DNA from: an uncultured Clostridia bacterium
Lineage (GTDB): Bacteria > Bacillota > Clostridia > TANB77 > CAG-508
Direction: 5' to 3'
NCBI GenBank assembly: GCA_946410665.1
Contig: CAMKBC010000002.1
Location: forward strand, 11,926 to 75,925
DNA: 64,000 nucleotides
Below the pieces are notes generated by a model. It was not told the origin of the DNA. It saw only the letters and a list, made by a program, of their open reading frames with translations, and made no database searches. Shown in pieces: positions 2,680 through 35,479 of this stretch. Each line of letters begins with the position of its first letter. Positions within the stretch are counted from its first letter, which is position 1. A program made the translations under genes and the position numbers.

Positions 2680-4095
2680 ATGTTAAATCAAAAGACAAAA
2701 ACAAAAAGAGATATTGCGGTTATATCAATTGCGACAATGATTATTGTTACATCTTTAGTAATGATTGTTAGCATGATAAGAAGTAATTCAACAGCATCAT
2801 TCTCGTTAGTATCTAAAAGTTATTTAGAATCTAACACAGAGAAAACAGGAAAAGTTACAGTTAATTACTTAGACACATTTGGAAATGAAATTTCTGATTC
2901 AACAGAAGTTAGTGGAAAAGTTGGAGAAGAATACAGCGTTGAAGCGAAGAAAATCGAAAGTTATATTTTACGCACAAACCCTTTTAACAGAAAAGGTAAT
3001 TTTGATGTGGCTACACAAAATGTAGATTTTGTTTATGAGAAAGACACAACAACAGTTGATGAAAATTCTGATGGACAAAATGTCGTAGTTACTATTTATA
3101 AAAACAAGGATGCAAAAGTTGATGATTATAAGTTAGTTATCAAAACAATCGATGAAGAAGGAAATGCACTACCAGGAACAGGATATAAAACTGTAAATGC
3201 AAACAATGCTGTTGTAAGAAGCACAACTGACTACACAGGAAATTATGTTGTTGGCTGTATCACACTAGATGGTGTTGGAACAGAAAAATACACAACAACA
3301 GAATTAAAATGTGTTGAAGGTTACATTGCTTTAAATGGATCAATTAATTTAACAGTTAACAAAACACAAGATGGTGATGCTTATAAACTTGATGCATCAA
3401 TTGAAGAAAAGGAAAATGTTTCTTTAAATGTTGATCATCAAAACAAAGAAGTAGTTATCACAGTTGTTAAGAAATTAGTTCCTGCGCCAAATCCTCCAGA
3501 AACAGGAGAAAAGATTTTTGATTTAACAATTGATAAAAATATAAAGACAGTAAAAATTAAAAACTCAGCAGAAGAAAAAACAATAACAAAAAACAATAAA
3601 GATGAATTAGTAAAAATTGATTTACCAAAAAGTAAATTAGCAGAAACAGAGCTAACAGTTACTTATGAAATAGTTGTTAAGAATGTAGGAGAACTTGCAG
3701 GATATGCAACATCAGTAATTGATGACCTACCAGCAAGAATGAACTTAACAGAAAACAATGTTGATTGGACTCAAAATGATGCACATGCAATCTCAACAAA
3801 ATTTGCATCAACTTTATTAAATCCAGGAGATAGTGTAAGTCAAGAAATCGTAGTTAAAATTAATTTAACAAATGACGATGTAGGAACAAAAATAAATAAA
3901 GCAAACATTAGCACATATTACAATGATGAAGGAATTAAAGATAAAACTCCAGATAACAATACAGAAGAGCCATTATTAATTACAGTTAAAACTGGACATG
4001 ATGCATTAATTCCACTAGCAGCTTTAATGATGATTGGAGCAGCTACATTATTAGTTTATGTGGTTAAAAAGAGAAACACAAACTCAAATGAGTAA
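2680..4095 (+). CDS. DUF11-type surface protein (471 aa) with an N-terminal signal anchor and a C-terminal hydrophobic anchor plus KKR tail
   Basis: RBS agaaggaaaag precedes the start. The N-terminus has a TM segment. There is a DUF11-like segment, and DKTPDNNTEE resembles the D.DS.P.N...EDD signature. The C-terminus VKTGHDALIPLAALMMIGAATLLVYVVKKRN looks like a sorting signal but has no canonical LPXTG. Confidence 0.65.
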   Translation: MLNQKTKTKRDIAVISIATMIIVTSLVMIVSMIRSNSTASFSLVSKSYLESNTEKTGKVTVNYLDTFGNEISDSTEVSGKVGEEYSVEAKKIESYILRTNPFNRKGNFDVATQNVDFVYEKDTTTVDENSDGQNVVVTIYKNKDAKVDDYKLVIKTIDEEGNALPGTGYKTVNANNAVVRSTTDYTGNYVVGCITLDGVGTEKYTTTELKCVEGYIALNGSINLTVNKTQDGDAYKLDASIEEKENVSLNVDHQNKEVVITVVKKLVPAPNPPETGEKIFDLTIDKNIKTVKIKNSAEEKTITKNNKDELVKIDLPKSKLAETELTVTYEIVVKNVGELAGYATSVIDDLPARMNLTENNVDWTQNDAHAISTKFASTLLNPGDSVSQEIVVKINLTNDDVGTKINKANISTYYNDEGIKDKTPDNNTEEPLLITVKTGHDALIPLAALMMIGAATLLVYVVKKRNTNSNE

Positions 4096-4162: not shown

Positions 4163-7100
4163 ATGAAAAGAAAAGTTTTTATTTTAAGTTCAATAATTTT
4201 CATATTGGTTGCAGCATTAGGAGCTATGTTCTTAGTGCCTAATAAAGTTGAAGCGGATGTAGCAACAGATGAAAATTCAATAACATGGAACTTCACAGTA
4301 AGTGGAGGAAATTTAATTAACTTAACATATAATTCAGGAACTATTCCTGCTGATGGAAAAGTTGTTATACCATCTAAATTAAATTTAAATGGAGTTGAAT
4401 ACACAGTAAGATCTTTAGGAAATACAACTTCTACTTATAGATCAATATTCTATAATGCATCATCAGCTAATAGAAATAGAATTAAAGAAGTAGTTATACC
4501 AGATACAGTTACAGAAGTTAAAAATTATGCTTTTTATAACGTACCTAATTTGACAAATATCGTATTCGGAGATGGAGTAACATCTCTTGGATATTACATA
4601 TTCGCAAACACATCAGTATCAGAGGTTGTATTACCTAAAAATATAACATACTTAAATTCTACTACATTTGCTGGTTATAATGGTAATAAAAATAATACAA
4701 TAAGAAAAATTTATATTAATGACAAACTAAATCTAAGCTACTTAAGTAGTGTTGTTTCATACACACCATACGTAACAGCGTGGGGAGTAAGAGAAGATAG
4801 CGAAAAATATGTTGAAGTAGACGGAGAATTATATAGTGTAGATGGCAAAACTTTATGTTTGATAAGACCTCAATACACAGAAGCAACATACACAGTTGGA
4901 GAAGAAGTTACAGACATAGGAGACTATGCTTTCTATAATAATAGAAATATAAGTACTGTTGTTTTGAACGATAACATCAAAACAATAGGAAATTACGCTT
5001 TTGGTTATTGTAGTAATTTAAACACTATAGATTTACCAGATTCATTAGTTTCGATTGGAAACGATGCGTTTATTAGTAGTGCATTAACGGGAGAATTAAA
5101 ACTACCAGAAAATCTTACTAATATAGGAAGAGAAGCCTTTTATAACTGCTCAAGACTTACAGGAGATTTAGTGATTCCTGATTCTGTAACGACAATGGGT
5201 GCATATGCGTTCAGAAGTTGCTCAGGATTTAATGGTAATTTAATAATAGGCAACGGATTAACAACTATAGAAAACTATGCTTTTTATGGTTCAGAGAATT
5301 TTAAGAGAATTACGATTGGATCTGGAGTTGAAAGAATTAAAGACAACGCTTTCAGCAATTTAAAAGATTTCTGGATTAATAGATTTGAAGGAGAAGTTTA
5401 TTTTGAAAGTAATTTCGGTGGATCAAACAGTAAACCATTCCCACATTATTTAAATGGAACACATAGAGTTACAATAGGTACTTCTGAAGGAATTAAAGTA
5501 GTAAATGCAGAAACAGGACTAGAAGTAGTAAGCGGAAATTACGAATGTGAAACATCATTCAGATATAAAGTAGTAATTGAACCAGGTTATAATTATCCTG
5601 ATTTGAAAATAGTTGAAATTAATAATGGAGAAATTGATAATGCAGTAAGTTATAACTATGTAGAAGGACAAGAATATGAATTTTCTACATTATTAAGAGA
5701 CAGAAGAATTTATATTGAATCAATTAAAGAAGGAAACGATTTATCATTAAGAACATTTGTAACAGATGTAAACTACACAACAATTTCTAAACCAAGAATT
5801 CCTATGGCAGAATTGACTAAAGGTGAATTCAAATATGTACACACAAAAAATCCAGTAAGAGTTGAAAACAATGATGACGTTACATTCAAGGTAAGAGTAT
5901 ATAACGAATCATTATCAAAAGTTTCAGCAGATGAAATAACAGTATATATTCCAGAAGGAATGTCATTTGATGAAGAAAACATAATTAACCAAAAAAATGG
6001 TTGGACTCTATCAAGTGAGGGAGTTGTTAAATCAACGAAGTTAGCAGAAAATTTAATTCCAGGATATTATGGAAATGGAATAATTTCTTATAGAGATTTA
6101 GAGTTATTATTAAAGGTTACAGATTCAACTTCTGAAGAAGATTTATACAAAACAGTATTTGCAGAAATAACAAGAGAAAGTGCAACAGATACTGATTCTA
6201 CACCAGGAAATGTCACTGTTTCTCAAAATTACATGATTAATGAAATTTTAAGTTCGAATGCAAATTCTGCTATTGTTTCACAAGAAGATGATGACGACTT
6301 TGATACAGTGGTATTAAATGCTAAGTTTAGAGTTGAATATGCAATTAGAATTAATAAAATTGATTCGAAGACAGATGAAGTTTTAAAAGGTGCAAAATTT
6401 AAACTAACTTCATTTGGAACAAATGAATTAGAAATTACAGAGAACAATACAAGAGTATTAAAGAGATACAATGATGGCGAGACAATTGCAACTGCAACTT
6501 CAGATGAGAATGGAGCTGTAGATTTCGGTGGCCTTGTATCATATGGTGAGGGTGAAAACGAATACTTAATTGAAGAAATTGATGCTCCATCAGGCTACTT
6601 AACAAACATCGGTAAAAAGATGAAAGTAAGAGTAGAAAAAATTATCATTGATAAAGAAAAAGGAACATACGGAGTAAAAGTATTCTGTGGTTCTACAGAC
6701 TATGCAATTGACACATCAACATATAATTTCACACCAGTAAAGACAGCTGAACAATTAGCTAAAATCGGTAGTGGTGAAGTAGTAAATGTTGATGGAGTAG
6801 ATTACGAATATAATATAGATACAAATTATAAATTAATCGATGATATTGATTTATCAGGAATTAATTGGACACCAATCAAGAATGAAATTAAAGGTGTGTT
6901 TGATGGTAATGGACATAAAATTAAGAATCTAACAATTACTTCAGATGATATATTAACATATTCAGAGGTTGGATTGATTTCTACATTCTCTGGAATTGTA
7001 GAAAACTTAACTTTCGAAGATCCTAATATTCACATTAGAACATTTGCTGAGAATGCAGTTTCTAATTCTGGATATACAGGAGTTGGATGTTTTGCAGGTG

Positions 7101-10100
7101 TAATGAGACAAGGTGGAATCTATAATTGTAAGACAACAGTAACAGAAGGTACATCAGCAAGCATTACTGCAGTAGCAGATAACTTAGGAGGTATGGTAGG
7201 ACATACTACTCCTGATGGATTAGTTACAGTAATTGATTGCGAAAACAATATTGAAATTATCGGACAAGAAGAAGAGATAGCTGGAGAACTTTTAAAGAAT
7301 AAAAATGTTGGTGGATTAATTGGATGTGCACTAGGCTCAATTAGCGTTCAAGACTCAGTAAATAACGGACATTTAATAGCAAAAGAATATAATGCCGGTG
7401 GATTAGTAGGTTTTGTAAACCCATCAGATTATAGAGAAATGTTATTATCAGCAGGTTATGATGAAGATAATAAACGTATTGATTTATTAGTAGAAAATGA
7501 AGCTGCAGAAGGTCAATACAACTTAACTCTTGAAATAAGAGACAGAAAAACACAAGCTTTAATCGGTGGAGCAACATACGAAATCGATAAAGTAGAAGAT
7601 ATGGTTATGACACAATTACTTGATACTGGATCATTAAAATTATTTGATAAAGTAATCGAGTATACAGGTAGAGATGTTTACTTCTTAACAGAAGATGAAA
7701 CAATCGAGGGTTATAGCAGATTAAATGGCATTATTAAAGTAGTTATCGAAAGATATTGGGATACTACTGCTCAAGAGTACAAAGTAAGAGCGGAAGCAAC
7801 AATCGTTTCACATAAAGAATACGAAGAGTTTGCAGAGCAAAGAGAAACAAACAATGCTGATGTAAAAGGTCAAGAATTTGACAGAGGTTCAGTATTCACA
7901 GATGCAAATATAGTAAATGCAAACTGGTATGGTAAGAAAGCTGATTTTATAAACAATACAAACAATGGATTAGTACAATCAAATTATATGAATGCAGCAG
8001 GTATACTTGGAACATCATACGGATTAGTAGAATTTGAAAACAATACAAACAATGGAACAATAGTATCTAACACAAAAGCAGCTGGTATGATTGCAGAATT
8101 AAGAACTGTTAATGGAAGAGATGGCTGGGACGATGTGCAGTACAATACTCAAGATACTACTGCAAATTCAAAATTCACAGAATGTACAAACAATGGTGAA
8201 ATTTACACTATAGGTCAAAGTTGGCAAGATTTAGGAAACGCTGGTGGATTGGTTTCAGAGATAAGAGGCTATGCGATTATTGAGAAAGCAACTAACAACG
8301 GAAAAATAACATCAAGTGGAAAAAGACAAGTTGGTGGTATTCTAGGACAAGCTTCTGGTGGAATTGAAATAAAGGAATCTGTAAATAAAGGCGAAATAAT
8401 AGCAGTATCGAGCGAATCTGATGTAGATAATCTTGCTGGTGGTATTATGGGACAACTTAGATGCGTTTCTGATTATTGCGAAAAAACACCATTCAAAAAT
8501 AATTATATTAGAATTAGTAAATGTAAGAACTATGCTAATGTAATGTCTTCTGGTGCAACATCTGGAATTTTAAGTGAAGCTTCAGGAAACGAAGTAACAA
8601 TCACAGACTGTGAAGTTAAAGGAACAGAAGAAAATAAATTAAATATAAGTATGACTCAAGATGGCGCTTGTGCTGGTGTACTTGCACTTGAAGGATGTAA
8701 ATATACGAATATTAAAAATAACATAGTAGAGAATTGTAAAATTGAAGTATTGAGTTTTGCAGGCTACGATACTTATGATTCATGTGCTGGAATTTTAGCA
8801 AATGTTGACTATAATTCAAATGTAGCAGGATTAACTCCAAAGAGCGGAGAAAACACATCAATTGAATCAATTATTGTTAATAACAATATTGTAAGAAATT
8901 GTTCAATAATAGATAGAAATAAAGAGTGTGGTGGTATCGTTGCTACTACTAACGTATATGATACAAATTGTTTAACATCAATTAACAATTGTTTAGTAAA
9001 AGACACAGAAATACTAAATTATAACTATCAAAATAGTACATATAACATTTCTGGTGGTATTTTCGCAGGTGGTGGATATGGAAATGGTAAAGTAGAGATT
9101 AACTACTGTCTTGTTGATAATACTAGAATCATCAAGAGCAATCCTGGCGGAGGTCCTGGTCCTGGACAATCAACAATTGGTGGTATCTTCGGTAGAGGAA
9201 ACCGCATAAAAGGAATCAAGATTGAAAATTGCGATTTCAAAGATTCATATATATATGATAATGCTCTAGATTCTACATCAGGTAGCCCTGGCGGAATCTT
9301 TGGAACATGTTATAGCATGTATGGAGATCTTGTTATAAGAGGATGTAATTTAATAAATTCAACAATTAGAGAATATGGACAAAATGTTGGTGGATTTATC
9401 GGCGGTGTCGAAGACGTTAATGGAACAGTTATAGTAGAAGACTGTGAAGCAATAGAGACTAATATTAGTAGAGAAATTTTGGGTGACTACAGAACAGTTT
9501 ATAACGATGTCGGATATGTAGTAGGTTTCATTATGGATGCCGATGCTATACGATTCAAAAATATAAATATTATAGGAAAAGATTTACCAAAAGGATCAGA
9601 AGGAAGAACAACAATTTATTCTGATGGTGCTAATATAGGTGCCGTTCTTGGTTGTGTAATGATTACTCCAAAATTCGAAGCAGAAAATATTACTGTAAAA
9701 AATATTGACATAGTAAACACAGTAGGCGAACATGGTTTTCCTGATCTAGATGCTGCACAAATTGGTGGTTTCGCTGGACTTATGATGTGTACCACACATT
9801 CAATTGATGGATTCACATTAGATAATTGCGATGTAAGAGGAAACAAAGTATTTAATGCTGGTGGTATTACATCTACAATGTTTGGTAGCAACAATGTAAT
9901 CAAAAACATAAATATAAAAGATTCATATATTACAACTAACTTAAATCTAGATGATGGAGTTAGTACATATGGACATGCAGCAGGTTTAATAGGAGAACAA
10001 ATTTATTCAGCATCATATGAAAACTGCAACGTTGAAAACTGTAAGATTTCGTCTGGCTGCGTTGGAGCATCAGGAATGATTTCATGTAACCACGGAAATA

Positions 10101-12469
10101 CAACAGTAAAGAATTGTACAATCAAAAATATCGAATTAGTTGATACATGGGAAAATCCACAAGGTGAAGTACCTGTTGGAAATGGATATCAACATTACAG
10201 ACCATTTGGTGGAGTTATATCTGTAGGAAACGGTATTGAAATAGACAATGTTTCAGTAGATGGATTTAAATGCTATGGAAAATATGCTCATATAGGTGCG
10301 ATAGCAGGATATGCTAGTAATGCTTCAATAACGAATTGTACTGTTAAAAATGCAGATATATATAGTGAAAGAAATATTTCAGGATCAAATGGAGCTGTAG
10401 GTGGAATAATAGCAGATGGTTGCTATTTAAAAGAATTTAACAACAACAAGATTAGTGATTCAAAAATTGTTACAACTACACACTTATTAGGCGGAATGAT
10501 AGGTACATTAAGTCCATATGGAAATCTAACTTTAAGTGATTGTGAAGTTGATAATGTAGAGCTTATTCATAAGAATATGAGCCATTTTGTAGAACAGGGA
10601 TATACTGCAAGTGCACCATCAATGGGTGGATTCGTATCTCAAACAAGTTCAAATTGTGAATTTAAGAATATAACAGTTAAGAATAGTACATTGAAAGCAG
10701 AAAATCCATCTGGAATTCCTCTACAAGTAGGTGGTATTTTAGGACATGGCAATTCAACATTAGATAATGTAAATGTAATCAATACAGAAATTGAAAACTT
10801 ATCAGCTAGCTCATGTACTGGTGGACTTGTAGGAATGGGCTTTGGCTTAACAATCAAAGATTCAGCAGTAAAACAAAACAGTAAAGTAAAAGGTAACTGG
10901 CATACAGCTGGTCTAGTTGGATTAGGTGTTATAACAGTTAACGATTCAAAAGTATTAAATACTAATATCGAAACATTAAGTGAAAATGGTGCGTTAGCAG
11001 CTGGTGTTCTAGCTATTGGAAATGAAAGAGATTCACAAGGCGTATTTAGACCATCAACAATTAATGGAGTAGAAATTAAAAACACAAATATCAGTGCACC
11101 AACAGTAAGCAATGCATATTCAAACCATGTAGGTGGTATTGCAGGAACTTACGCAGGAACAATTGAAGATGTTACAATGACAAATGTAGATATTACAACA
11201 GGAGCTCTTGCAGCAGGTGTTGTAGCTGTTCAAGAAAATGTTGGTAGCATTTCAGATGTAGAATTAAATGATGTAAACACAACATCAGCAAATGCTTTAG
11301 CAGGTGGTATTGCAGCTGTATCAAATTCAAATATTTCAGATGCAAAAATATTAAATTCTGAAGTAAAAGGTAAAGATATGACAGGTGGTATTGCAGCAAC
11401 AAATAATGGATCAACAATTGATGAAGTTGAGATAAATAATGTAAAAGTTACTTCTCAAGCATCGCATGCAGGTGGTGTTATAGCTTGCACAACTACAAAA
11501 GTATCAAATGCAATTGTAAAGAATTCAAATATTAAAGCAAATGCTTTAGCAGGTGGTATTACCGGAACAAGTTATTCAAATATTGAATCTGTAGAAATTA
11601 ATGGTACAACAATTAAGTCAACAGTATCACATGCAGGCGGCGTTGCTGGAACATCATATGTATTAATTAAAGATGCAACCGTAAAAGGTTCAACAATTAC
11701 AGGCAATCAATTAGTTGGTGGTATTGTAGGTACTTCAAATGCTGAAATTAATAATGCAAAAGTAGAGGGGTCAACAATTAAATCTGAAGCACTACATGCA
11801 GGTGGTATTGCTGCTTGTACAGTATTCCCTGTAACAGGATCAAAAGTAAAAGATTCAACAATTATTACTTTAAGTGGAACATTTGAATCAGTATCTAACA
11901 TACTTCCTACATGTCTAGGTGGATTAGTTGGAGCTGGAGATACAGATTCAACAACTGGTGAACTAAAACCAGACCTAGCAACATCAACTGTTGAAAATAA
12001 CACATTAACAGGAGCAACAGGAACAGTAGTAGGAAAATATATCGGAGCACCTAAAGCACTTAATGATCAATTAGTAGCAGGTGAAACAACAACTAATCCA
12101 GATACAAATAACACATCTGGAGCACCATTAAATTCAATGGCGCCAACATCATCAAATACACAAGCTTCACCTAAAACAATGTCATTAAATGCACAACCAA
12201 AATCAAGTGAAGATCAAGTAGATGATTCTGATAAAACAACTAATACTGAAACAACTAGTGGCACAAAAGAGGATAAAACAGAAACTGAATCAAATAAAGA
12301 AACAGAAATTGAAAAAGAATCTGAATCTAAAACAGAAGACACTCAAACAAAAGGTGAGAGTGAATCTGATAAAGAAGAAACAACAAGCACAAAAGAAGAT
12401 GACAAAACAGAAGATAAGACAGATTCAACAGACAAAACAGAAGAAAGTGCTACTAAAGGAAATGAATAA
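4163..12469 (+). CDS. Giant secreted surface protein (2768 aa): signal peptide, BspA-type LRR, DUF11, Cna-B-like domain, GLUG-like repeat solenoid, and an acidic K/E/T/S-rich tail
   Basis: Signal peptide MKRKVFILSSIIFILVAALGAMFLVPNKVEA. LRR_5/BspA-type repeats read (I/V)PDSVT.IG..AF..C..L. DUF11 carries DTDSTPGN...QEDDDDF. Cna-B-like segments read TDENGAVDF...EEIDAPSGY. Dozens of GGL(V/I)G GLUG-like units follow. There is no TM or LPXTG at the C-terminus. Confidence 0.85.
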   Translation: MKRKVFILSSIIFILVAALGAMFLVPNKVEADVATDENSITWNFTVSGGNLINLTYNSGTIPADGKVVIPSKLNLNGVEYTVRSLGNTTSTYRSIFYNASSANRNRIKEVVIPDTVTEVKNYAFYNVPNLTNIVFGDGVTSLGYYIFANTSVSEVVLPKNITYLNSTTFAGYNGNKNNTIRKIYINDKLNLSYLSSVVSYTPYVTAWGVREDSEKYVEVDGELYSVDGKTLCLIRPQYTEATYTVGEEVTDIGDYAFYNNRNISTVVLNDNIKTIGNYAFGYCSNLNTIDLPDSLVSIGNDAFISSALTGELKLPENLTNIGREAFYNCSRLTGDLVIPDSVTTMGAYAFRSCSGFNGNLIIGNGLTTIENYAFYGSENFKRITIGSGVERIKDNAFSNLKDFWINRFEGEVYFESNFGGSNSKPFPHYLNGTHRVTIGTSEGIKVVNAETGLEVVSGNYECETSFRYKVVIEPGYNYPDLKIVEINNGEIDNAVSYNYVEGQEYEFSTLLRDRRIYIESIKEGNDLSLRTFVTDVNYTTISKPRIPMAELTKGEFKYVHTKNPVRVENNDDVTFKVRVYNESLSKVSADEITVYIPEGMSFDEENIINQKNGWTLSSEGVVKSTKLAENLIPGYYGNGIISYRDLELLLKVTDSTSEEDLYKTVFAEITRESATDTDSTPGNVTVSQNYMINEILSSNANSAIVSQEDDDDFDTVVLNAKFRVEYAIRINKIDSKTDEVLKGAKFKLTSFGTNELEITENNTRVLKRYNDGETIATATSDENGAVDFGGLVSYGEGENEYLIEEIDAPSGYLTNIGKKMKVRVEKIIIDKEKGTYGVKVFCGSTDYAIDTSTYNFTPVKTAEQLAKIGSGEVVNVDGVDYEYNIDTNYKLIDDIDLSGINWTPIKNEIKGVFDGNGHKIKNLTITSDDILTYSEVGLISTFSGIVENLTFEDPNIHIRTFAENAVSNSGYTGVGCFAGVMRQGGIYNCKTTVTEGTSASITAVADNLGGMVGHTTPDGLVTVIDCENNIEIIGQEEEIAGELLKNKNVGGLIGCALGSISVQDSVNNGHLIAKEYNAGGLVGFVNPSDYREMLLSAGYDEDNKRIDLLVENEAAEGQYNLTLEIRDRKTQALIGGATYEIDKVEDMVMTQLLDTGSLKLFDKVIEYTGRDVYFLTEDETIEGYSRLNGIIKVVIERYWDTTAQEYKVRAEATIVSHKEYEEFAEQRETNNADVKGQEFDRGSVFTDANIVNANWYGKKADFINNTNNGLVQSNYMNAAGILGTSYGLVEFENNTNNGTIVSNTKAAGMIAELRTVNGRDGWDDVQYNTQDTTANSKFTECTNNGEIYTIGQSWQDLGNAGGLVSEIRGYAIIEKATNNGKITSSGKRQVGGILGQASGGIEIKESVNKGEIIAVSSESDVDNLAGGIMGQLRCVSDYCEKTPFKNNYIRISKCKNYANVMSSGATSGILSEASGNEVTITDCEVKGTEENKLNISMTQDGACAGVLALEGCKYTNIKNNIVENCKIEVLSFAGYDTYDSCAGILANVDYNSNVAGLTPKSGENTSIESIIVNNNIVRNCSIIDRNKECGGIVATTNVYDTNCLTSINNCLVKDTEILNYNYQNSTYNISGGIFAGGGYGNGKVEINYCLVDNTRIIKSNPGGGPGPGQSTIGGIFGRGNRIKGIKIENCDFKDSYIYDNALDSTSGSPGGIFGTCYSMYGDLVIRGCNLINSTIREYGQNVGGFIGGVEDVNGTVIVEDCEAIETNISREILGDYRTVYNDVGYVVGFIMDADAIRFKNINIIGKDLPKGSEGRTTIYSDGANIGAVLGCVMITPKFEAENITVKNIDIVNTVGEHGFPDLDAAQIGGFAGLMMCTTHSIDGFTLDNCDVRGNKVFNAGGITSTMFGSNNVIKNINIKDSYITTNLNLDDGVSTYGHAAGLIGEQIYSASYENCNVENCKISSGCVGASGMISCNHGNTTVKNCTIKNIELVDTWENPQGEVPVGNGYQHYRPFGGVISVGNGIEIDNVSVDGFKCYGKYAHIGAIAGYASNASITNCTVKNADIYSERNISGSNGAVGGIIADGCYLKEFNNNKISDSKIVTTTHLLGGMIGTLSPYGNLTLSDCEVDNVELIHKNMSHFVEQGYTASAPSMGGFVSQTSSNCEFKNITVKNSTLKAENPSGIPLQVGGILGHGNSTLDNVNVINTEIENLSASSCTGGLVGMGFGLTIKDSAVKQNSKVKGNWHTAGLVGLGVITVNDSKVLNTNIETLSENGALAAGVLAIGNERDSQGVFRPSTINGVEIKNTNISAPTVSNAYSNHVGGIAGTYAGTIEDVTMTNVDITTGALAAGVVAVQENVGSISDVELNDVNTTSANALAGGIAAVSNSNISDAKILNSEVKGKDMTGGIAATNNGSTIDEVEINNVKVTSQASHAGGVIACTTTKVSNAIVKNSNIKANALAGGITGTSYSNIESVEINGTTIKSTVSHAGGVAGTSYVLIKDATVKGSTITGNQLVGGIVGTSNAEINNAKVEGSTIKSEALHAGGIAACTVFPVTGSKVKDSTIITLSGTFESVSNILPTCLGGLVGAGDTDSTTGELKPDLATSTVENNTLTGATGTVVGKYIGAPKALNDQLVAGETTTNPDTNNTSGAPLNSMAPTSSNTQASPKTMSLNAQPKSSEDQVDDSDKTTNTETTSGTKEDKTETESNKETEIEKESESKTEDTQTKGESESDKEETTSTKEDDKTEDKTDSTDKTEESATKGNE
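4380..5400 (+). repeat. BspA-type leucine-rich repeat block (about 12 repeats)
   Basis: Repeating units include VVIPDTVTEVKNYAFYNVPNLTNIVF, IDLPDSLVSIGNDAFISSALTGELKLP and LVIPDSVTTMGAYAFRSC. Confidence 0.7.
5830..6310 (+). other. DUF11 (conserved repeat domain) within the 2768-aa protein
   Basis: FKVRVYNES...VYIPEGM...DTDSTPGN....SQEDDDDFDTV matches the D.DS.P.N / EDD signature typical of DUF11. Confidence 0.55.
7290..12070 (+). repeat. GLUG-like motif region, including Cna-B-like inserts
   Basis: Recurrent NVGGLIGCA, AGGLVGFV, AGGLVSEIRG, VGGILGQASGG, AGGIMGQL, IGGIFGRGN and similar units occur at roughly 25-30 aa spacing. Confidence 0.65.
11100..11840 (+). repeat. Tandem periodic repeats of about 22 aa, the same family as at 1149..2199
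   Basis: TGALAAGVVAVQENVGSISDVELNDVN / TSANALAGGIAAVSNSNISDAKILNSEVKGKD / MTGGIAATNNGSTIDEVEINNVKVTSQAS / HAGGVIACTTTKVSNAIVKNSNIKA and further copies. Confidence 0.65.
11906..12085 (+). repeat. DNA-level duplicate of 2228..2393, the C-terminal cap module shared by two giant genes
   Basis: gttgaaaa(t/c)aacacattaacaggagcaacaggaaca matches at 35 of 36 nt between copies, and the flanks are also similar. Confidence 0.7.
12080..12469 (+). other. Low-complexity acidic, Lys- and Thr-rich C-terminal tail. It contains no hydrophobic anchor.
   Basis: The tail reads TTTNPDTNNTSG...KTETESNKETEIEKESESKTEDTQTKGESESDKEETTSTKEDDKTEDKTDSTDKTEESATKGNE*. Confidence 0.7.
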
Positions 12470-12492
12470 TTAGACGTTTAATATAATAAATG

Positions 12493-12523
12493 AAGCGGAG
12501 AGTAAAATCTCCGCTTTATTTTT
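12493..12523 (+). terminator. Rho-independent terminator
   Basis: The stem gcggaga/tctccgc has loop gtaaaa and is followed by tttattttt. Confidence 0.65.
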
Positions 12524-12585
12524 GTGATGCGATTTTTTATCAATAAAATGTTTAAAATTAAAAGTCGTTATATTATAATAAGCAC

Positions 12586-13287
12586 ATGATGAAAACAAAG
12601 CGAGAAAAAAATAAAAAATCTAAGAGATTTATATCGTTTATATTCATCATCTTATTACTCACGACAATAGTCGTAGCGGCGATTTTTATAGGTGATAATA
12701 TGAATATAGTGGGACTAAATAAAGAAGCCTCAGATTATCTAGAAGAACTAGAAAGATTGAACGTAAGTTTAGATGATGAAGATAATAATAGTATTAATAC
12801 TCTCGAAATAAACGCTTCTGCGGAGGCAAATGAGATTGTTGAAGAAAAGGAATCTCCACGAGGAATAGCCTCAGAAAGTAGAGTATACAAAGGCTATACA
12901 GTAGCGGGAAAGATTGAAATGCCTTCAGTAAATTTAAGATACCCAGTATTAGATACAATGACTAATGCAAATGCACTTGAGGTTTCAGTATGTATTCAAT
13001 ATGGAGTACCATTAAATACTGTAGGAAACACAGTCATCATAGGTCACAATTATAAAAATGGATTGTTCTTTGGAAGCAACAAGAACATGAAAAACGGAGA
13101 TCAAATTCACATTACAAACTATGCAACAGGTGTAAAAAAGACATACAGTATTTACAGCATTTATCAAACAGAAGAATCTGATACATCTTTTTACAACCGT
13201 GACACGGGTGGAAAGAGCGAGATTACATTAATAACCTGTCAAAACAATAATAAATACAGATTAGTAATTAAAGCTAAAGAAATATAA
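12586..13287 (+). CDS. Sortase (233 aa). Its size and the NPQTN-like substrates nearby suggest class B.
   Basis: A basic N-terminal stretch precedes a TM anchor. Catalytic His sits in VIIGHNY, catalytic Cys in ITLITCQ, and the conserved Arg in YRLV. Confidence 0.85.
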   Translation: MMKTKREKNKKSKRFISFIFIILLLTTIVVAAIFIGDNMNIVGLNKEASDYLEELERLNVSLDDEDNNSINTLEINASAEANEIVEEKESPRGIASESRVYKGYTVAGKIEMPSVNLRYPVLDTMTNANALEVSVCIQYGVPLNTVGNTVIIGHNYKNGLFFGSNKNMKNGDQIHITNYATGVKKTYSIYSIYQTEESDTSFYNRDTGGKSEITLITCQNNNKYRLVIKAKEI

Positions 13288-13312
13288 AAAACGCAAAAGA
13301 ATAGAGGAAAAA

Positions 13313-14953
13313 ATGAAATTTTTAAAAGAATTGTTATACTCATTTACAATAATACTTACAATTGCTTACATAGTGTTTAGAATTGGCTTCACACTACCAG
13401 TAACAATTGGTCCAGTAGCAGTTATATTTTCAGTAATAGTACTACTCTTGGAAATTTGGGATGCAATTGATTTTACAGTATATTATATGAATATCTTAGG
13501 AGTAGATCGCAAAAACAAAGCCCTACCTAAGATTAAAGACGAAGACTATCCAGATGTAGATGTTTTTGTAGCAACAATTAACGAGAACGAAAAAGTTTTA
13601 GCAACAACAATTGAAGCTTGCAAAAATATGAAATATCCAGATAAAAAGAAAGTTCATATTTATATTTGTGATGATGGAAACAGAAAGAACATCAAAGAAC
13701 TTACAGAAAAATTAGAAGTAAATTATATTACTAGATTATCAAACAAAGATGCAAAAGCAGGAAACTACAATAACGCATTAAAAAAGACCAAGTCACCATA
13801 TATTGCAACATTTGATGCAGACATGATTCCTACTGAAGACTTCTTAATGAAAACAATTCCTTATTTCTTAGGAGAAGATAAAAAGGTTGGATTTGTACAA
13901 CTTCCACAGAGTTTCAAAAATCCAGATATCTTCCAATTACGTTTCAAATTGGCTGATAAAATTCCTTTCGAGCAAGATTATTTTTATCGTCAAATTCAAT
14001 TATCAAAAAATGATATTAACACAGCAATAAATTGCGGAACTAACTTAGTTCTTTCAAGAGAAGCATTAAATAGCATTGATGGTTTCGCAAGAAATACAAT
14101 AACAGAAGATATTGCAACTGGTATGTTAATGGAAAATGCAGGATATACAGGTATTGCAATTGACGAAGTTGGAGCTCATGGAAACAATGTTAACGATGTA
14201 ACATCATTCATTAAACAACGTTCAAGATGGGCAAGAGGATGTATCCAAGTTGCAAAGAACTATAAGATTTCAAAGCAAAGAGGATTATCATTTAGACAAA
14301 AGTTGGAATACAAATCATGTATTTCATATTGGTTTTACGGAATTAGAAGAATGCTTTATATGTTGGCACCATTACTATTCACAGTATTCGGAGTAATTAT
14401 CATCGACTGTGATTTAAGAATATTCTTAGCAGTATGGCTTCCAGCATATTTAATAAAGAGATTCTTAATTGACTTAACAGAAGGACATCATCGTTCATCT
14501 ACATGGAACAAAATTTACGAAACAATATTAACACCAGTACTTTGCAAGGAAGTATTAAAAGAACTATTAGGCTTCGGAAGCACAAAATTCGAAGTTACAC
14601 CAAAGTATTCAGTAAATAAAAAGATGACAAGAACACATAAGAAATTATTTGTTTCACATTTTATTTTATTAGCAATCAGTATTGCAGCTTTGGTATACAG
14701 TATAATTCGTGGACAAGGTGCATTCTACTTTGATTCATACTTCAATAGCATGACGTTCAACTTATCATTGATTTGGTTAGCATCAAATATATTCTACTTA
14801 ACATGTGCTGTAATATTTGATTTAAGTAATAGAACAAAGATACCAGAAGACTTTGTTCCTAACAAATTAGAAAAATACAAAAGATCTTCTATACCATTTA
14901 TCTTTATAAATATTTTTAGAAGAGATAAAAAAGAAGCAAAAGAAACTAAATAA
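13313..14953 (+). CDS. Processive family-2 glycosyltransferase, cellulose-synthase-like (BcsA/CcsA-like core with no PilZ domain)
   Basis: Motifs present are DVFVATINE, ICDDG, KDAKAGNYNNAL (HAKAGN-like), FDADM, QLPQSF (QTP-like), TED and QRSRWARG (Q.xRW). Multiple TM segments are present. Confidence 0.85.
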   Translation: MKFLKELLYSFTIILTIAYIVFRIGFTLPVTIGPVAVIFSVIVLLLEIWDAIDFTVYYMNILGVDRKNKALPKIKDEDYPDVDVFVATINENEKVLATTIEACKNMKYPDKKKVHIYICDDGNRKNIKELTEKLEVNYITRLSNKDAKAGNYNNALKKTKSPYIATFDADMIPTEDFLMKTIPYFLGEDKKVGFVQLPQSFKNPDIFQLRFKLADKIPFEQDYFYRQIQLSKNDINTAINCGTNLVLSREALNSIDGFARNTITEDIATGMLMENAGYTGIAIDEVGAHGNNVNDVTSFIKQRSRWARGCIQVAKNYKISKQRGLSFRQKLEYKSCISYWFYGIRRMLYMLAPLLFTVFGVIIIDCDLRIFLAVWLPAYLIKRFLIDLTEGHHRSSTWNKIYETILTPVLCKEVLKELLGFGSTKFEVTPKYSVNKKMTRTHKKLFVSHFILLAISIAALVYSIIRGQGAFYFDSYFNSMTFNLSLIWLASNIFYLTCAVIFDLSNRTKIPEDFVPNKLEKYKRSSIPFIFINIFRRDKKEAKETK

Positions 14954-14960
14954 AAAGGGA

Positions 14961-16286
14961 GTGATTAAAATAAGAAACAAGATTTTGGCACTTGTAATTG
15001 TTGCATTCATCATTACATTAGTTACAGCAGTAGCAATAAAAATGAATAATGACAACAATAAGCAAGCAAATGTAAATGAAACAAACGAAACAAATACAAT
15101 CGAGCAACCAACAGAGAACAATACTAACTGGCTTAGAGTTAATGGTTCAAAAATTGAAGACTACAAAGGCAATGTAGTTCAATTAAAAGGTTTAAGTAGC
15201 CATTCTGTTATAGATTTTTCAGAAGTAGTAACATATGAAAATCTTAAGAAACTTAAAGAAGGCTGGGGCATAAACTGTTTTAGAATCGCAATGTATACAG
15301 ATCCAAATGTTAATGGATATGTTTTAACAAAAGACAAGAACAAGGAAAACGCAATCAAGATAATTGACATGTGCGAACAACTTGGAATATATGCTGTTAT
15401 GGATTGGCATACATTAAATGATGGAAATCCTCAAACATATCAAACAGAAGCAATCGAGTTCTTTAATGAAATATCAGAAAAGTACAAAGAGAATCCTTTC
15501 TTAATATATGAAATTTGCAACGAACCCAATAATTGCGCATGGGGAGAAAATGTAAAACCATATGCAGAAGAAGTGATAAAAACAATTAGAAAGAATTCGC
15601 CCAAAGCAATGATTTGGGTAGGCGTACCAGGATGGGGTAAAAGCATCGGAGATGCAAAAGAAAGCCCTATAGAAGTTGAAAACATAGCATATACATTCCA
15701 TTTTTATGCCGGATCAATGGCAGATGATTATAGAAGAGCTGTAGATAAGTGCTTAGAAGCTAATCTTCCAATAGTTGTTTCAGAGTGTGGAATAACTGAC
15801 CTAACAGGAAATGGAGATATATACAAAGAAGAATTTGCAAAATGGGTAGATTACCTAAATTCACACAGTATTAGCTGGATATTCTGGCAATTTAGTAACA
15901 AGGAAGAAAGTTCATCTATTCTAACAAAAGAATACGAAGTTAGAAAGAAAGTGTTCGGAGTACCTGCAAATACAGAAGAAAATAGCACTGAAGATAATGC
16001 GGCAGAGCCTCAAGAAGTATGGATTGAAACAAATTATGACATCAATAACTTCCTAACAGAGACAGGAAAATATGTTAAGGAGATGCTATCAAGAGAAGCA
16101 CCACTAACACCAATAACAATACCAGATACAAACGAGACTAATATAACGAATACAACAGAAAATATAGTAAATGGAGTTGATGCAAACAGCACTAGTAACG
16201 TAATAAATAGTGTAAACGCTGAAAACACAGCAAATTCGGTAGAAAGTGACCTATTTAAACAACTTCAAGACTTATTAAATCAATAA
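14961..16286 (+). CDS. Glycoside hydrolase family 5 endo-beta-glucanase with an N-terminal signal anchor and a C-terminal Asn/Thr-rich tail
   Basis: The GH5 NEP acid/base motif is IYEICNEPNN and the nucleophile region is IVVSECGI. The start is GTG, lying 7 nt after the GT2 stop. Confidence 0.85.
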   Translation: MIKIRNKILALVIVAFIITLVTAVAIKMNNDNNKQANVNETNETNTIEQPTENNTNWLRVNGSKIEDYKGNVVQLKGLSSHSVIDFSEVVTYENLKKLKEGWGINCFRIAMYTDPNVNGYVLTKDKNKENAIKIIDMCEQLGIYAVMDWHTLNDGNPQTYQTEAIEFFNEISEKYKENPFLIYEICNEPNNCAWGENVKPYAEEVIKTIRKNSPKAMIWVGVPGWGKSIGDAKESPIEVENIAYTFHFYAGSMADDYRRAVDKCLEANLPIVVSECGITDLTGNGDIYKEEFAKWVDYLNSHSISWIFWQFSNKEESSSILTKEYEVRKKVFGVPANTEENSTEDNAAEPQEVWIETNYDINNFLTETGKYVKEMLSREAPLTPITIPDTNETNITNTTENIVNGVDANSTSNVINSVNAENTANSVESDLFKQLQDLLNQ

Positions 16287-16293
16287 AAATTAA

Positions 16294-16335
16294 AACAGCA
16301 AAACGATTTTATGTAAATCTTTTGCTGTTTTTTAT
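16294..16335 (+). terminator. Rho-independent terminator ending the sortase-GT2-GH5 operon
   Basis: The stem aacagcaaaa/ttttgctgtt has a 16-nt loop and is followed by tttt. Confidence 0.6.
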
Positions 16336-16419
16336 TATTTTGGTTGTGTTTAGGGTAAAAATTTGATAGAATAGGGGCACGATAATAGACTGTTATAGAT
16401 TATTTTTAGGGGTAGATGG

Positions 16420-23499: not shown

Positions 23500-23591
23500 T
23501 GTACTAAAACAAATAGATGTAATGAGCGCAAACACTACGAAAATAAGGCGTAGAGCATTGTTTTTGTTGATAAAAAACAAAAAGGTTAATA

Positions 23592-23683
23592 ACTGTAACA
23601 TAAAAATTCTCAAAAAAGCCCTAATATATCTATATATTAGAAGCATCAAAAATATTAAGAAATATTTTCAAAGGAGAAGTTTT
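23592..23683 (+). promoter_or_regulatory. Conserved promoter/leader block, copy A, shared with 35353..35430
   Basis: tgtaacaNaaaaNttctcaaaaaa ... (c/g)tatatta(g/t)a(a/g)gcatc.aaa..tattttcaaaggagaa is conserved upstream of both giant genes. Confidence 0.5.
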
Positions 23684-26600
23684 ATGAAAGTAAATCTAAG
23701 AAAGTCGACAAAAACAATTTTAAAAGTTGCAAGTCTTATGATTGTATTGATAACAACAATAGTTGCTATCTGCTTAAACAACACAACTTTTAAAAGCTCT
23801 TTAACAGAAGAGCAACTATTCGAGAACAGAGTAGCAAAGAATTACAACGAGTTAACAAACGATGATAAGGAGACTAATGTACCTAATGTTAAATTTGGTG
23901 CTTATTTTTTACGTGACATGGAAGGCAACAATGTAGCACATATGCTTGATGGAACATGTAAGAGAATAGGCAGTTCAGATGATTTGTATTTTGACATTCA
24001 AGTAAGCGGCGATTCATATATCGACAACGCGAAAATCAGAATTACAAACGCAAACTTTAAAGCGGAATTCAATTATTTGAAAGATGACTACCTAAAATAC
24101 AATTACCAAGGTGTTTATAGTTTAATTGAATTCAATAAAATTGACGGTGGTTCAGAAGAGCAAATCTATGGAAACATACAGTTTACTCCTTTAAGTAATT
24201 ACAATGACTATTCAAAGACAGCAGTTGTTACTTTTACTGCTGACTATCATGATATTTATACAGGAGAAACAGCTCAAGTTGAAAAACAAGTACCAATAAC
24301 TGTTGATTGGTATGGAGATTTAAATACAGTAGTGTTTTCACAAAATAGAGCATATAGTCCTGATGACATTGAGGGTAATACTGTAAATACTTTATTTGAG
24401 ATTAAAGAATATGTAGATGAAACTAAAAAAGATGAAACTTTACTTTTGAAAGATAGAACAATAGAAATTAAAATTCCTAATTTAAGACAATGGGAACCGG
24501 TAACTGCTAGATTAAGTGACGGAAATGCAACATATGATCCTGAAACAAAAACACTTACTTTAACTAAAGAATCTAGATTTGATGAGAGTGGAAATTTAAT
24601 AAGTTCGATAGCTAACAAAACATCATACACAGTGTATATAACTTATCCAGAAGAAGCATATCAATATACAACACTAGTTGGGGCTGATGATATATTTAAT
24701 GGAAAAGAGCAACTTAGCCTAAAAACAACAGTTACAACTCATGCATATAATAATCCTGGGGTAGAATTCGAGAATATTGTTACTTCGGAAAACATTGTAT
24801 ATCCAACAATTAAATTTACTCCACCTTCTGCACCACCAGCACCATTAGGAACAACAGTTGTTGTAACTTATGAACATGAGGATAGTGAAATTTCAATACA
24901 GAGAGTATTAGAAAACTACGACAAGGTAAAAGAAGAAGGTTTTGATGCAGGAACACTAAGTTCATATTTTGATACACATATAACAGTTCAAAGAGGAGCA
25001 ATTAGAGACTTTGGACTTTTGAAAATTGATGAGGAATACGTTAAATTTGGACAAAATGATGTAAGTAAATATCTAAAAGACACAAGCATAAGTTACTATG
25101 GAATCAGCGAGATATTAGAGGACGACGGAAAGATTTTAGTATACAATGCAGAGACTGATGAATTAATAAAAGAAATCGGTATGGATGTCATAAGAAAAAA
25201 TTCATCAATAACTGTTCCTGAAAATGTAGCAAGAGTTAGAATTGAATTGACAAACTTCAAAAAATGTGAAGGAACAACAATTAGAGGAAACCGCATATAT
25301 GCAGGAAATCTAGCTGATATATATGTACATAAAGCATTAGACATTAATGCTATAATTAATGATTTTGAATATTCTACACTAAAGAGTTTATCTAACTATT
25401 ATTCAAAGATAGCAGATAAACTATATCAAAAAGATTCAGGTACATTGGAATATACAACTTCAGCAAGTGATTCTTCGAAATTAAAATATAATAAAACTGA
25501 AGCTATGATAAGAGCATATCCAGCAGCTTTTGGAAATAATGGAGAAATTGATGAAGATGCTGAACAACCAGGAGAAGATATAACTCTTACAGTATCTTCA
25601 AAACATGAACAAGACAGAGCTTATTGGGGTAAAGGTGAATTTGTAGTAGAGTTGCCAGATGAATTCAATTACTTTAATTTAAATAGTGTTGAATCAAGTA
25701 CATGTACAATTAATGGATATGAATACTTTGAAGAAAATGGAAAGAAATTAATAAGAGTTTTTGCAGAAACAAACTATAACATCATAATTACAATTAAAGG
25801 ACGTGTAGTAATAGATCCATTAGCTTCAAACGGAAATAAAGCAATAAGACTTTATTACAAGAACGAAAGTTGCGCAGATTACTATAATGGAAAAGTAAGT
25901 GATAAATATGATGTTGATTTAAATGAGGATACAACAGAAGGAATTGGTTATGCATCAACATATGTAACAGTAACGTCACCTGCAACATTTATTGTTAAGC
26001 AAATGGTAACAAATTTCGATGAAAAAGAATCATTTGTTACAGCACCTAATGTTGCTGAAGTAGACAAAGAAACAAATCATGCAACAATTCAAATTGGTGT
26101 AAAGAATAATAATGCAAGTCCAGTTATAGATTGTTATTTAGTAGGAAAGATTCCATACGAAGGAAACACAAAAGTAAAAACCACAACAGATTTGAAATCA
26201 AAATTCACAGCACATATGACATCAGAAGGTATTATTGTTCCAGAAAACTTAAGAAATGTAACAGTTTACTATTCAGAAAATGATTCGGTTAACTTTAACA
26301 TAGATGATGCATCGAATGGATGGAAGTTAAAAGAAGAAATTACTGATTGGAATAAAGTAAGATCTTTCTTAATCGATTTAAGTAATATAACAATTAGATC
26401 TGGAGACGCCAATCAGGTATTTAAATACAATGTTACAGTTCCAAATGGATTATCATATAATGATGCTTCATACTCTACAGTAGCATCTAAATACAACTTA
26501 CAAACAAATTCAGGAATACTTTATAATAGGGGAACAGAATCACAAAAGACAGGTATAAGAATTGTTAGAAAATACAATCTTGATACAACTTTATACAAAG

Positions 26601-35430: not shown

Positions 35431-35479
35431 CTATGATGTGAAAATATTCATATCAAGCAAAAGAAAAAAGGAGAAAACA

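Follow-up and report, generated by a model that had tools for sequence, protein, structure and literature searches.

The 64,000-nucleotide (nt) window analysed here, from an uncultured Clostridia bacterium (GenBank assembly GCA_946410665.1, contig CAMKBC010000002.1, positions 11,926 to 75,925), encodes on its plus strand a family 2 glycosyltransferase (GT2) and a family 5 glycoside hydrolase (GH5) directly behind a sortase. We propose, with a probability of roughly 70%, that the GT2 is a β-glucan synthase lacking both PilZ and BcsB, that its chain is trimmed or released by the GH5 as an extracellular, membrane-anchored endo-β-1,4-glucanase, and that the sortase is co-expressed with the pair locally. 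As judged from sequence comparison, GT2 and GH5 together make up the conserved unit, to which the sortase does not belong. The three genes are:

12586..13287, plus strand: sortase gene, 233 amino acids (aa), an open reading frame (ORF) with a PF04203 match
13313..14953, plus strand: GT2 gene, 546 aa, with PF00535, PF13641 and PF13632
14961..16286, plus strand: GH5 gene, 441 aa, with PF00150

Compared with the NCBIfam models, the GT2 scored 363.7 bits for CelA (TIGR03030), and PgaC and NodC followed with only 46 and 35 bits. Searches of the PDB returned BcsA structures at E-values of about 1e-66, and in a Foldseek search with the predicted GT2 model BcsA chains came top (TMq 0.70-0.74), with plant CesA, hyaluronan and chitin synthases ranking far lower. 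An identity as a poly-N-acetylglucosamine (PNAG), chitin, hyaluronan or NodC synthase was rejected on these grounds (at most 46 bits against 364 for CelA, and BcsA well above the hyaluronan, chitin and CesA enzymes in Foldseek). Grouping with chitin, hyaluronan or PNAG synthases, which an earlier note on this DNA had named as a test, does not occur. The QxxRW, TED and HAKAGN-like motifs quoted in that note were all located: the protein carries CDDG at residue 119, DAKAGN at 146, FDAD at 167, TED at 264, QRSRW at 302 and the gating-loop motif FEVTPK at 426. In a 12-sequence alignment of the GT2 family the D, DxD, TED, QxxRW and FxVTxK residues were invariant. The protein has two N-terminal and about four C-terminal transmembrane (TM) helices and ends in a short conserved cytosolic tail, FxPNK...Y...S; by homology to BcsA (two N-terminal TM helices, GT domain, interface helices, gating loop, four TM helices), its C-terminus should be cytosolic.

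The absence of PilZ, also suggested in the earlier note, holds on several counts. The TIGR03030 match covers model positions 59-562 of 714, the alignments with BcsA structures end ahead of the PilZ domain, the motif RxxxR...D/NxSxxG was not found in the GT2 sequence, and the protein stops about 40 residues past its last TM helix. The scores stay under both BcsA equivalog cutoffs (363.7 bits vs 699.1 for TIGR03030, and 280.2 bits vs 992 for PRK11498). No BcsB domain was detected in Pfam scans of the flanking ORFs, which covered positions 2680 to 23442. On this comparison we classify the GT2 as a BcsA/CcsA-type processive synthase without PilZ. A riboswitch replacing PilZ as sensor of cyclic di-GMP (c-di-GMP) was also considered, and was ruled out by an Rfam scan of the whole window at gathering thresholds, which returned no c-di-GMP riboswitch or other known RNA element. 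With neither PilZ nor riboswitch in the window, post-translational control of the GT2 by c-di-GMP, at the enzyme itself, is unlikely, and its activity is probably set by transcription. The synthase is under strong constraint: between the window and its close relative L097 (locus labels are those of our own set) the GT2 is 98% identical, against 82% for both the sortase and the GH5.

Three GT2 relatives of 623-651 aa (L034 5986-7878, L038 5983-7854 and L085 5953-7908) bear a C-terminal extension of ~110 residues without canonical PilZ motifs. Possibly this extension is what remains of a degenerated PilZ domain and traces how the domain was lost.

The partner enzyme is a GH5 and not a GH8, as the earlier note had it (PF00150, E 2.2e-54, 185 bits). 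Its best PDB matches are of the Bacillus Cel5A/EglS type (6gjf, 3pzt and 1h11; E 1e-64 to 1e-70), and the NEP and SECG motifs of that note are confirmed at residues 187-189 and 274-277, where they provide the acid/base Glu188 and the nucleophile Glu275 of the (β/α)8 catalytic domain. A basic N-terminus precedes a TM helix at residues 8-26, and an N/T-rich extension runs from about residue 322 to 441; Pfam detected no carbohydrate-binding module (CBM) in the protein. The TM helix ahead of the catalytic domain is kept in all 46 GH5 relatives, as are E188, E275, H81, H150, N187, H247 and Y249 (invariant in 46/46). From CAZy knowledge of its best PDB relatives we take the enzyme to be GH5_2-like; characterised GH5_2 enzymes are overwhelmingly endo-β-1,4-glucanases. 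The GH5 is thus predicted to be a type-II membrane-anchored endo-β-1,4-glucanase, and the basic N-terminus followed by one TM helix implies that its catalytic domain should face outward.

An argument for a functional pair comes from its conservation. From species-representative genomes we retrieved 80 related loci, which fall cleanly into two groups by GT2 identity, length and PilZ motif. GT2 relatives of at most 45% identity (C. difficile, Clostridium spp., Paenibacillus, Tepidibacter and others) are 725-805 aa long and have the PilZ motif; those of at least 45% identity are about 520-575 aa long, have no PilZ motif and form a separate clade that holds the window, as seen in a neighbour-joining (NJ) tree made without bootstrap. 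The PilZ-less clade is a compact family: clustering at 50% identity left a handful of representatives for it among 1327 BcsA-like matches with E below 1e-30. According to record titles, from which all organism labels of relatives were taken, it is restricted to metagenome-assembled genomes (MAGs) from animal gut and rumen that are labelled Clostridia, Bacilli or Lachnospiraceae, with many labelled Candidatus Saccharibacteria or Nanosyncoccus. In nearly every locus of the clade with downstream sequence, a window-type GH5 adjoins the GT2. We clustered the flanking ORFs of the 51 non-redundant PilZ-less GT2-GH5 loci all against all and found no third conserved gene beside the pair, and thus no BcsB- or CcsB-like partner.

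Moreover, the two proteins are repeatedly one. At least seven loci (L029, L040, L042, L045, L047, L051 and L053) contain a single in-frame GT2-GH5 ORF of 873-902 aa, in the order GT2 core, cytosolic linker, one extra TM helix and GH5 domain. In an independent library, the called gene P0242 (898 aa) is likewise a fusion, with its Pfam GT2 match at 86-381 and its GH5 match at 592-839. In the unbootstrapped NJ tree the fusions sit at two separate places inside the PilZ-less clade. In the fusions, exactly one TM helix is inserted after the cytosolic end of the synthase and ahead of the GH5 domain, which fits an outward-facing hydrolase.

These patterns also bear on the possibility that the GH5 is a nutritional cellulase or β-glucanase for dietary fibre whose place beside the GT2 has no functional meaning. 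The source organisms are all gut or rumen bacteria, and GH5_2 enzymes are classic secreted cellulases, as such a role would have it. We nevertheless regard it as highly improbable, given an adjacency kept in nearly all loci with downstream sequence across Clostridia, Bacilli and Saccharibacteria MAGs, and a repeated in-frame fusion that retains the intervening TM helix. Moreover, every homologue is tethered to the membrane and no CBM was detected in the window protein, in contrast to typical free cellulases.

Several members of the wider set deserve separate mention. About 17 loci labelled Saccharibacteria or Nanosyncoccus carry the PilZ-less pair (L028, L031, L032, L035-L037, L039, L041, L043, L044, L046, L048, L049, L052, L054, L056 and L083), on contigs of up to 342 kb. 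By these title-derived labels, they make up one cluster nested within those of Firmicutes, a pattern that suggests transfer between Clostridia and Saccharibacteria of the gut. Acetitomaculum ruminis DSM 5522, a rumen acetogen, is the sole cultured organism among the 80 loci with such a pair (L076, 4861-7638), and thus a possible experimental entry point; its PilZ-less GT2 has 562 aa, and the window-type GH5 (35% identical) lies immediately upstream. In L096 (6624-9388) the GT2 is interrupted by a frame break around residue 490, and there is no gene call for the GH5 (88% identical); either a misassembly or decay of the pair into pseudogenes could explain this. Finally, a separate synthase-hydrolase fusion occurs in the termite-protist endosymbiont Ca. 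Paraimprobicoccus trichonymphae (AP027925.1; L065, 5953-8622; also P0244). Here a GT2 of the CcsA clade, without PilZ motif, is joined to a CcsZ-type GH5 that is 54% identical to C. difficile CcsZ.

We envisage the following mechanism for the pair. The GT2 would most probably polymerise UDP-glucose at the cytosolic face and thread a β-(1,4)-linked glucan, cellulose-like or possibly of mixed linkage, through its own TM channel. The GH5, held on the outer face of the membrane by its one N-terminal TM helix, would cut the emerging chain at the exit, by analogy with plant KORRIGAN, and so release or size the glucan; chain cleavage or sizing is the role proposed for BcsZ and CcsZ (PMC7710045, PMC8892547). 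The GH5 helix may in addition stabilise the synthase in place of the TM anchor of BcsB or GlxA; CslA depends on GlxA, a partner with one TM helix, and BcsA on the TM anchor of BcsB (PMC11022532). More speculatively, the synthase might be unable to do without the GH5 helix as a structural component that takes the place of BcsB, which would explain the recurrent fusions.

A variant of this scheme concerns the product. The GT2 might make a mixed-linkage (1,3;1,4)-β-glucan in the manner of the Cgs enzyme RiGT2, with the GH5 trimming at β-1,4 bonds. RiGT2 is itself a clostridial BcsA-like GT2 that makes mixed-linkage glucan (PMC10374906), the synthase-linked CcsZ, a membrane-tethered GH5, prefers mixed-linkage glucan five-fold over carboxymethylcellulose (CMC) in its activity (PMC7710045), and sequence cannot tell cellulose synthases from mixed-linkage glucan synthases. 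However, RiGT2 and the Cgs proteins carry a PilZ domain required for activity (PMC10374906). The PilZ-bearing relatives all fall outside the window's clade. The general CAZy picture of GH5_2 activity, given above, also speaks for β-1,4-linked substrates. A mixed-linkage product is therefore possible, although we consider it doubtful.

As to the sortase, the operon-like layout described in the earlier note is as stated there. The three consecutive plus-strand ORFs are separated by gaps of 25 nt (sortase-GT2) and 7 nt (GT2-GH5) and are followed by a terminator after the GH5 gene, and this layout is repeated in the related loci L096-L098. The signals around the unit are:

12488..12527, plus strand: intrinsic terminator-like hairpin with U-run (dG -20 kcal/mol, z -7.1), which terminates the giant-protein gene upstream, insulating the sortase unit
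12551..12579, plus strand: promoter-like TTTAAA-17-TATAAT, a consensus match only
13288..13312, plus strand: spacer between sortase and GT2, 25 nt, unstructured (dG 0), with a GAGG ribosome-binding site for the GT2
16292..16343, plus strand: terminator-like hairpin with U-run (dG -17.5 kcal/mol, z -5.4), which closes the unit

The upstream terminator is present in L096 and L097 as well, and so is the promoter-like arrangement. Folding of the region revealed no terminator between the three genes. The DNA is AT-rich, and promoter-like matches in the region (23 found) are no commoner than the 26.8 expected from shuffled sequence, which makes the promoter scan uninformative and leaves a single operon structurally plausible. 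Since the sortase stands directly upstream of GT2-GH5 behind the same promoter, the three genes are probably co-transcribed; their layout fits one transcription unit. The sortase ATG codons at 12586 and 12589 come 7-10 nt past the -10 box, with no Shine-Dalgarno sequence, and the sortase transcript, read from these positions, may be leaderless or have a very short leader.

Two further start-codon contexts are unusual. The GTG start of the GH5 gene at 14961 sits within its own Shine-Dalgarno sequence AAGGGAG (14955-14972), whereas the ideal distance from it is kept by an ATA in the same frame at 14970. The sortase gene of the sister species L010 (409-475) has AAGGAG, an ATA 9 nt on, and only a TTG deeper in.

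The sortase itself appears intact. It matched PF04203 (E 2.6e-19, 69.6 bits) and exceeded the TIGR01076 cutoff (42.4 bits, cutoff 39.35); it is membrane-anchored by an N-terminal TM helix at residues 18-36 and has the complete triad of His154, Cys218 and Arg225, and its best PDB match is 2kw8. It reached none of the class-specific NCBIfam cutoffs, the class C and class E models (NF033745 and NF033747) giving 48.5 and 23.8 bits against cutoffs of 160.

The linkage of this sortase to the pair is shallow. Apart from the identical contig L009, the nearest loci are L096-L098, with 80-84% identity for the sortase and 95-98% for the GT2. All four have the same order of giant protein, terminator, TATAAT, sortase, spacer, GT2, 7-nt spacer, GH5, SpoIIE-like gene and WG-repeat gene; in L096-L098 the sortase-GT2 spacer is 23 nt, against 25 nt in the window. 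In L010 (GT2 92%, sortase 73% identical) sortase and GT2 stand 233 nt apart, and this spacer harbours both a TATAAT box and a strong terminator (dG -22.5, z -6.7, U-run). We had considered the 25-nt spacer as a deletion peculiar to the window, but dropped this because L096-L098 are equally tight; either a deletion occurred here or an insertion in L010. Across the 51 non-redundant loci, a sortase occurs within 6 kb of GT2-GH5 only inside the window's shallow clade. Sortase orthologues of 46-57% identity reside in a conserved context of tRNA-synt_2c/tRNA_SAD, HIT and sortase genes with no GT2 nearby, and in GCA_017512025.1 sortase and GT2 are on different contigs, the GT2 following rpoB-rpoC. 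On these comparisons the sortase, of housekeeping type, is a recent, genus-level neighbour brought in by local rearrangement, and the linkage is lineage-specific synteny.

The earlier note had suggested that matrix production and adhesin anchoring are coordinated. In the fullest form of this idea the sortase is integral to the system, glucan synthesis and adhesin anchoring are one co-evolved programme, and proteins are perhaps attached in a glucan-dependent manner. It would account for the 23-25-nt spacing, the shared upstream signals (terminator and promoter) and the absence of any terminator inside the unit, all kept in the window and L096-L098, and sorting-signal proteins are indeed encoded nearby. 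Yet the sortase is adjacent only in this shallow clade, the L010 terminator and TATAAT box split it from the GT2, distant orthologues occupy a housekeeping HIT-sortase locus unlinked to GT2, and a sorting signal is missing from both GT2 and GH5. Functional coupling was thus not borne out, and we judge the co-evolved programme improbable.

We favour the tethered synthase-glucanase pair, with the sortase co-expressed locally, but several points weigh against it. The AlphaFold model of the GT2, built from the 12-sequence alignment, has a mean pLDDT (predicted local distance difference test) of 59.6, with the GT domain alone confident and the TM region below 50, and the channel and topology consequently rest on homology. 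Deletion of PilZ abolishes the activity of RiGT2 (PMC10374906), which means that a naturally PilZ-less GT2 must compensate somehow. The role of the GH5 could be degradative, serving nutrition in the fibre-rich gut. The case for co-transcription derives solely from the missing terminator, and L010 does have one that would insulate the sortase from the GT2. Finally, product linkage is not readable from sequence, and both the activity of the pair and its product are predictions.

Around the locus lie genes for surface proteins, most of them giant, including candidate substrates of the sortase:

2680..4095, plus strand: MucBP/SpaA surface protein whose C-terminus consists of TVKTG, TM helix and KKRN; candidate substrate of the sortase, though its sorting motif is non-canonical
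4163..12469, plus strand: giant LRR_5/SpaA secreted protein, 2768 aa, no C-terminal anchor; recurrent neighbour of GT2-GH5
23522..35212, plus strand: giant SpaA/MucBP/Glug protein with a sorting signal of LPQTS, TM helix and K-rich tail; candidate sortase substrate
35438..52345, plus strand: giant MucBP/Laminin_G_3 protein with a sorting signal of LPQTN, TM helix and basic tail; candidate sortase substrate

For the last of these, a 5635-aa protein, the Pfam scan covered the first 5000 residues. The sortase most likely anchors the LPQTS and LPQTN giants and/or the TVKTG MucBP protein, and would not act on GT2 or GH5. The MucBP homologues of L006, L011, L015 and L021, which stand beside a giant LRR_5 gene, retain [IV]T[IV]KTG followed by a TM helix and a K/R tail. 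Such a proline-less, TVKTG-type signal recalls the NVQTG-type motifs handled by C. difficile SrtB. With two motif classes, LPQTS/LPQTN and TVKTG-type, two sortases may be needed. The earlier note had spoken of an adhesin island, a term that fits only loosely; giant surface-protein genes do flank the locus, but housekeeping genes are interspersed among them and base composition is uniform.

Members of the giant LRR_5/SpaA (BspA-like) family occur within 6 kb in 30 of the 51 PilZ-less loci, a raw count given without a genomic background rate, and their orientation to GT2-GH5 varies (upstream on the same strand, divergent, or downstream). Most Clostridia-type copies have no C-terminal hydrophobic anchor or sorting signal. 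It is conceivable, though we think it rather unlikely, that GT2-GH5 builds a short wall-associated β-glucan that serves as a non-covalent docking layer for these giant anchorless proteins. If true, such a glucan would let gut Clostridia with small genomes, and possibly Saccharibacteria of the gut, hold megadalton adhesins by a means other than sortase anchoring.

In the window, the LRR_5/SpaA family is seen at 4163-12469 and 99-2393. In Saccharibacteria-labelled loci the giant protein has a TM helix and an RRR tail, e.g. with VPNTG in L044. Downstream of the GH5 gene, 16420-18666 encodes a 748-aa protein with a weak SpoIIE_N match (31.6 bits; TIGR02865 118 bits vs a cutoff of 490), and this SpoIIE-like gene is syntenic in L010 and L096-L098.

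Bacterial cellulose-type synthesis is known mainly through BcsA-BcsB with PilZ and c-di-GMP control, and the Gram-positive models are only Ccs, Cgs and CslA-GlxA, each of which keeps at least part of PilZ or needs a dedicated partner. Among the papers searched we found no description of the PilZ-less GT2-GH5 clade, which is not proof that none exists. Its parts are familiar; what stands out is their combination. A BcsA-type synthase with neither PilZ nor a partner subunit is tied obligately to a tethered glucanase of the Cel5A type, with which it has repeatedly fused. Lacking PilZ and any BcsB-like gene, and accompanied by a tethered GH5 alone, the clade looks like the smallest natural version so far. 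Confined as it is to uncultured gut and rumen Clostridia, Bacilli and Saccharibacteria-labelled MAGs, it could account for a surface glucan, so far unrecognised, in gut bacteria that are abundant but unstudied. Natural fusions, moreover, provide a ready-made construct for asking how a BcsA-like enzyme works without c-di-GMP gating and why synthases need a cognate glucanase. The eye-catching sortase linkage, by comparison, is a shallow, lineage-specific rearrangement.

Among known systems, the earlier note had likened the locus to the clostridial Ccs type. The C. difficile ccsZABHI system for acetylated cellulose (Scott et al., 2020; PMC7710045) is indeed alike in being Gram-positive and in pairing a BcsA-homologous synthase with a GH5, rather than a GH8, on a single N-terminal TM helix, and the window GT2 and CcsA share 45% identity across the GT and TM core. 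Nonetheless, membership was rejected after tblastn searches that used CcsB, CcsH, CcsI and CcsZ of C. difficile (from L071) as queries. CcsB (CBM11-like), CcsH (MBOAT) and CcsI (DHHW) had no match in the window or in any PilZ-less locus, yet CcsH and CcsI, and usually CcsB and CcsZ also, were found in the PilZ-bearing loci, nearly all of which carry these genes. CcsA has PilZ, and the CcsA-type, PilZ-bearing relatives form a clade apart from the window's in the NJ tree. The hydrolases differ too. CcsZ is a GH5_25 enzyme, and the window GH5 is Cel5A-like; the two share 31% identity over about 105 aa (E 8e-07), against 49-56% for true CcsZ orthologues, and CcsZ structures are missing among its PDB matches at E below 1e-10. 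In addition, the order here is GT2 then GH5, sometimes fused. That the locus belongs to the Ccs system is therefore very hard to sustain.

With proteobacterial BcsA-BcsB-BcsZ (PDB 4hg6, 4p00 and 9b8v) the locus shares the GT2 fold, the D/DxD/TED/QxxRW/FxVTxK motifs, the TM channel architecture and an endoglucanase encoded alongside. It differs in having no PilZ, BcsB or BcsC, two fewer N-terminal TM helices, a GH5 instead of a GH8, and a TIGR03030 score at about half the equivalog cutoff. Streptomyces CslA-GlxA(-CslZ/LpmP) (PMC11022532) likewise combines a Gram-positive BcsA-like synthase without a complete PilZ with a glucanase gene in the cluster, and CslA depends on a single-TM extracellular partner encoded immediately downstream. 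That partner, GlxA, however, which is translationally coupled to the synthase, is a radical copper oxidase and not a glycoside hydrolase, and CslA retains the RxxxR motif and responds to c-di-GMP (PMC11022532); Pfam scans of the flanking ORFs of the window locus found no GlxA or LpmP homologue or copper oxidase domain. Cgs/RiGT2 of Romboutsia ilealis (PMC10374906) is also a clostridial BcsA-like GT2 that acts without BcsB and is active without c-di-GMP, but it keeps a PilZ domain essential for activity, and no conserved GH5 partner has been reported for it. The window GT2 has no PilZ, and all PilZ-bearing relatives lie outside its clade, RiGT2 itself not being in the tree. Outside the bacteria, plant CesA with KORRIGAN presents a similar arrangement, a processive synthase without PilZ or BcsB and a type-II membrane-anchored endo-β-1,4-glucanase on the outer face. 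KORRIGAN is a eukaryotic GH9 enzyme that is neither co-encoded with nor fused to its synthase, and the likeness to the GT2-GH5 pair is one of analogy only.

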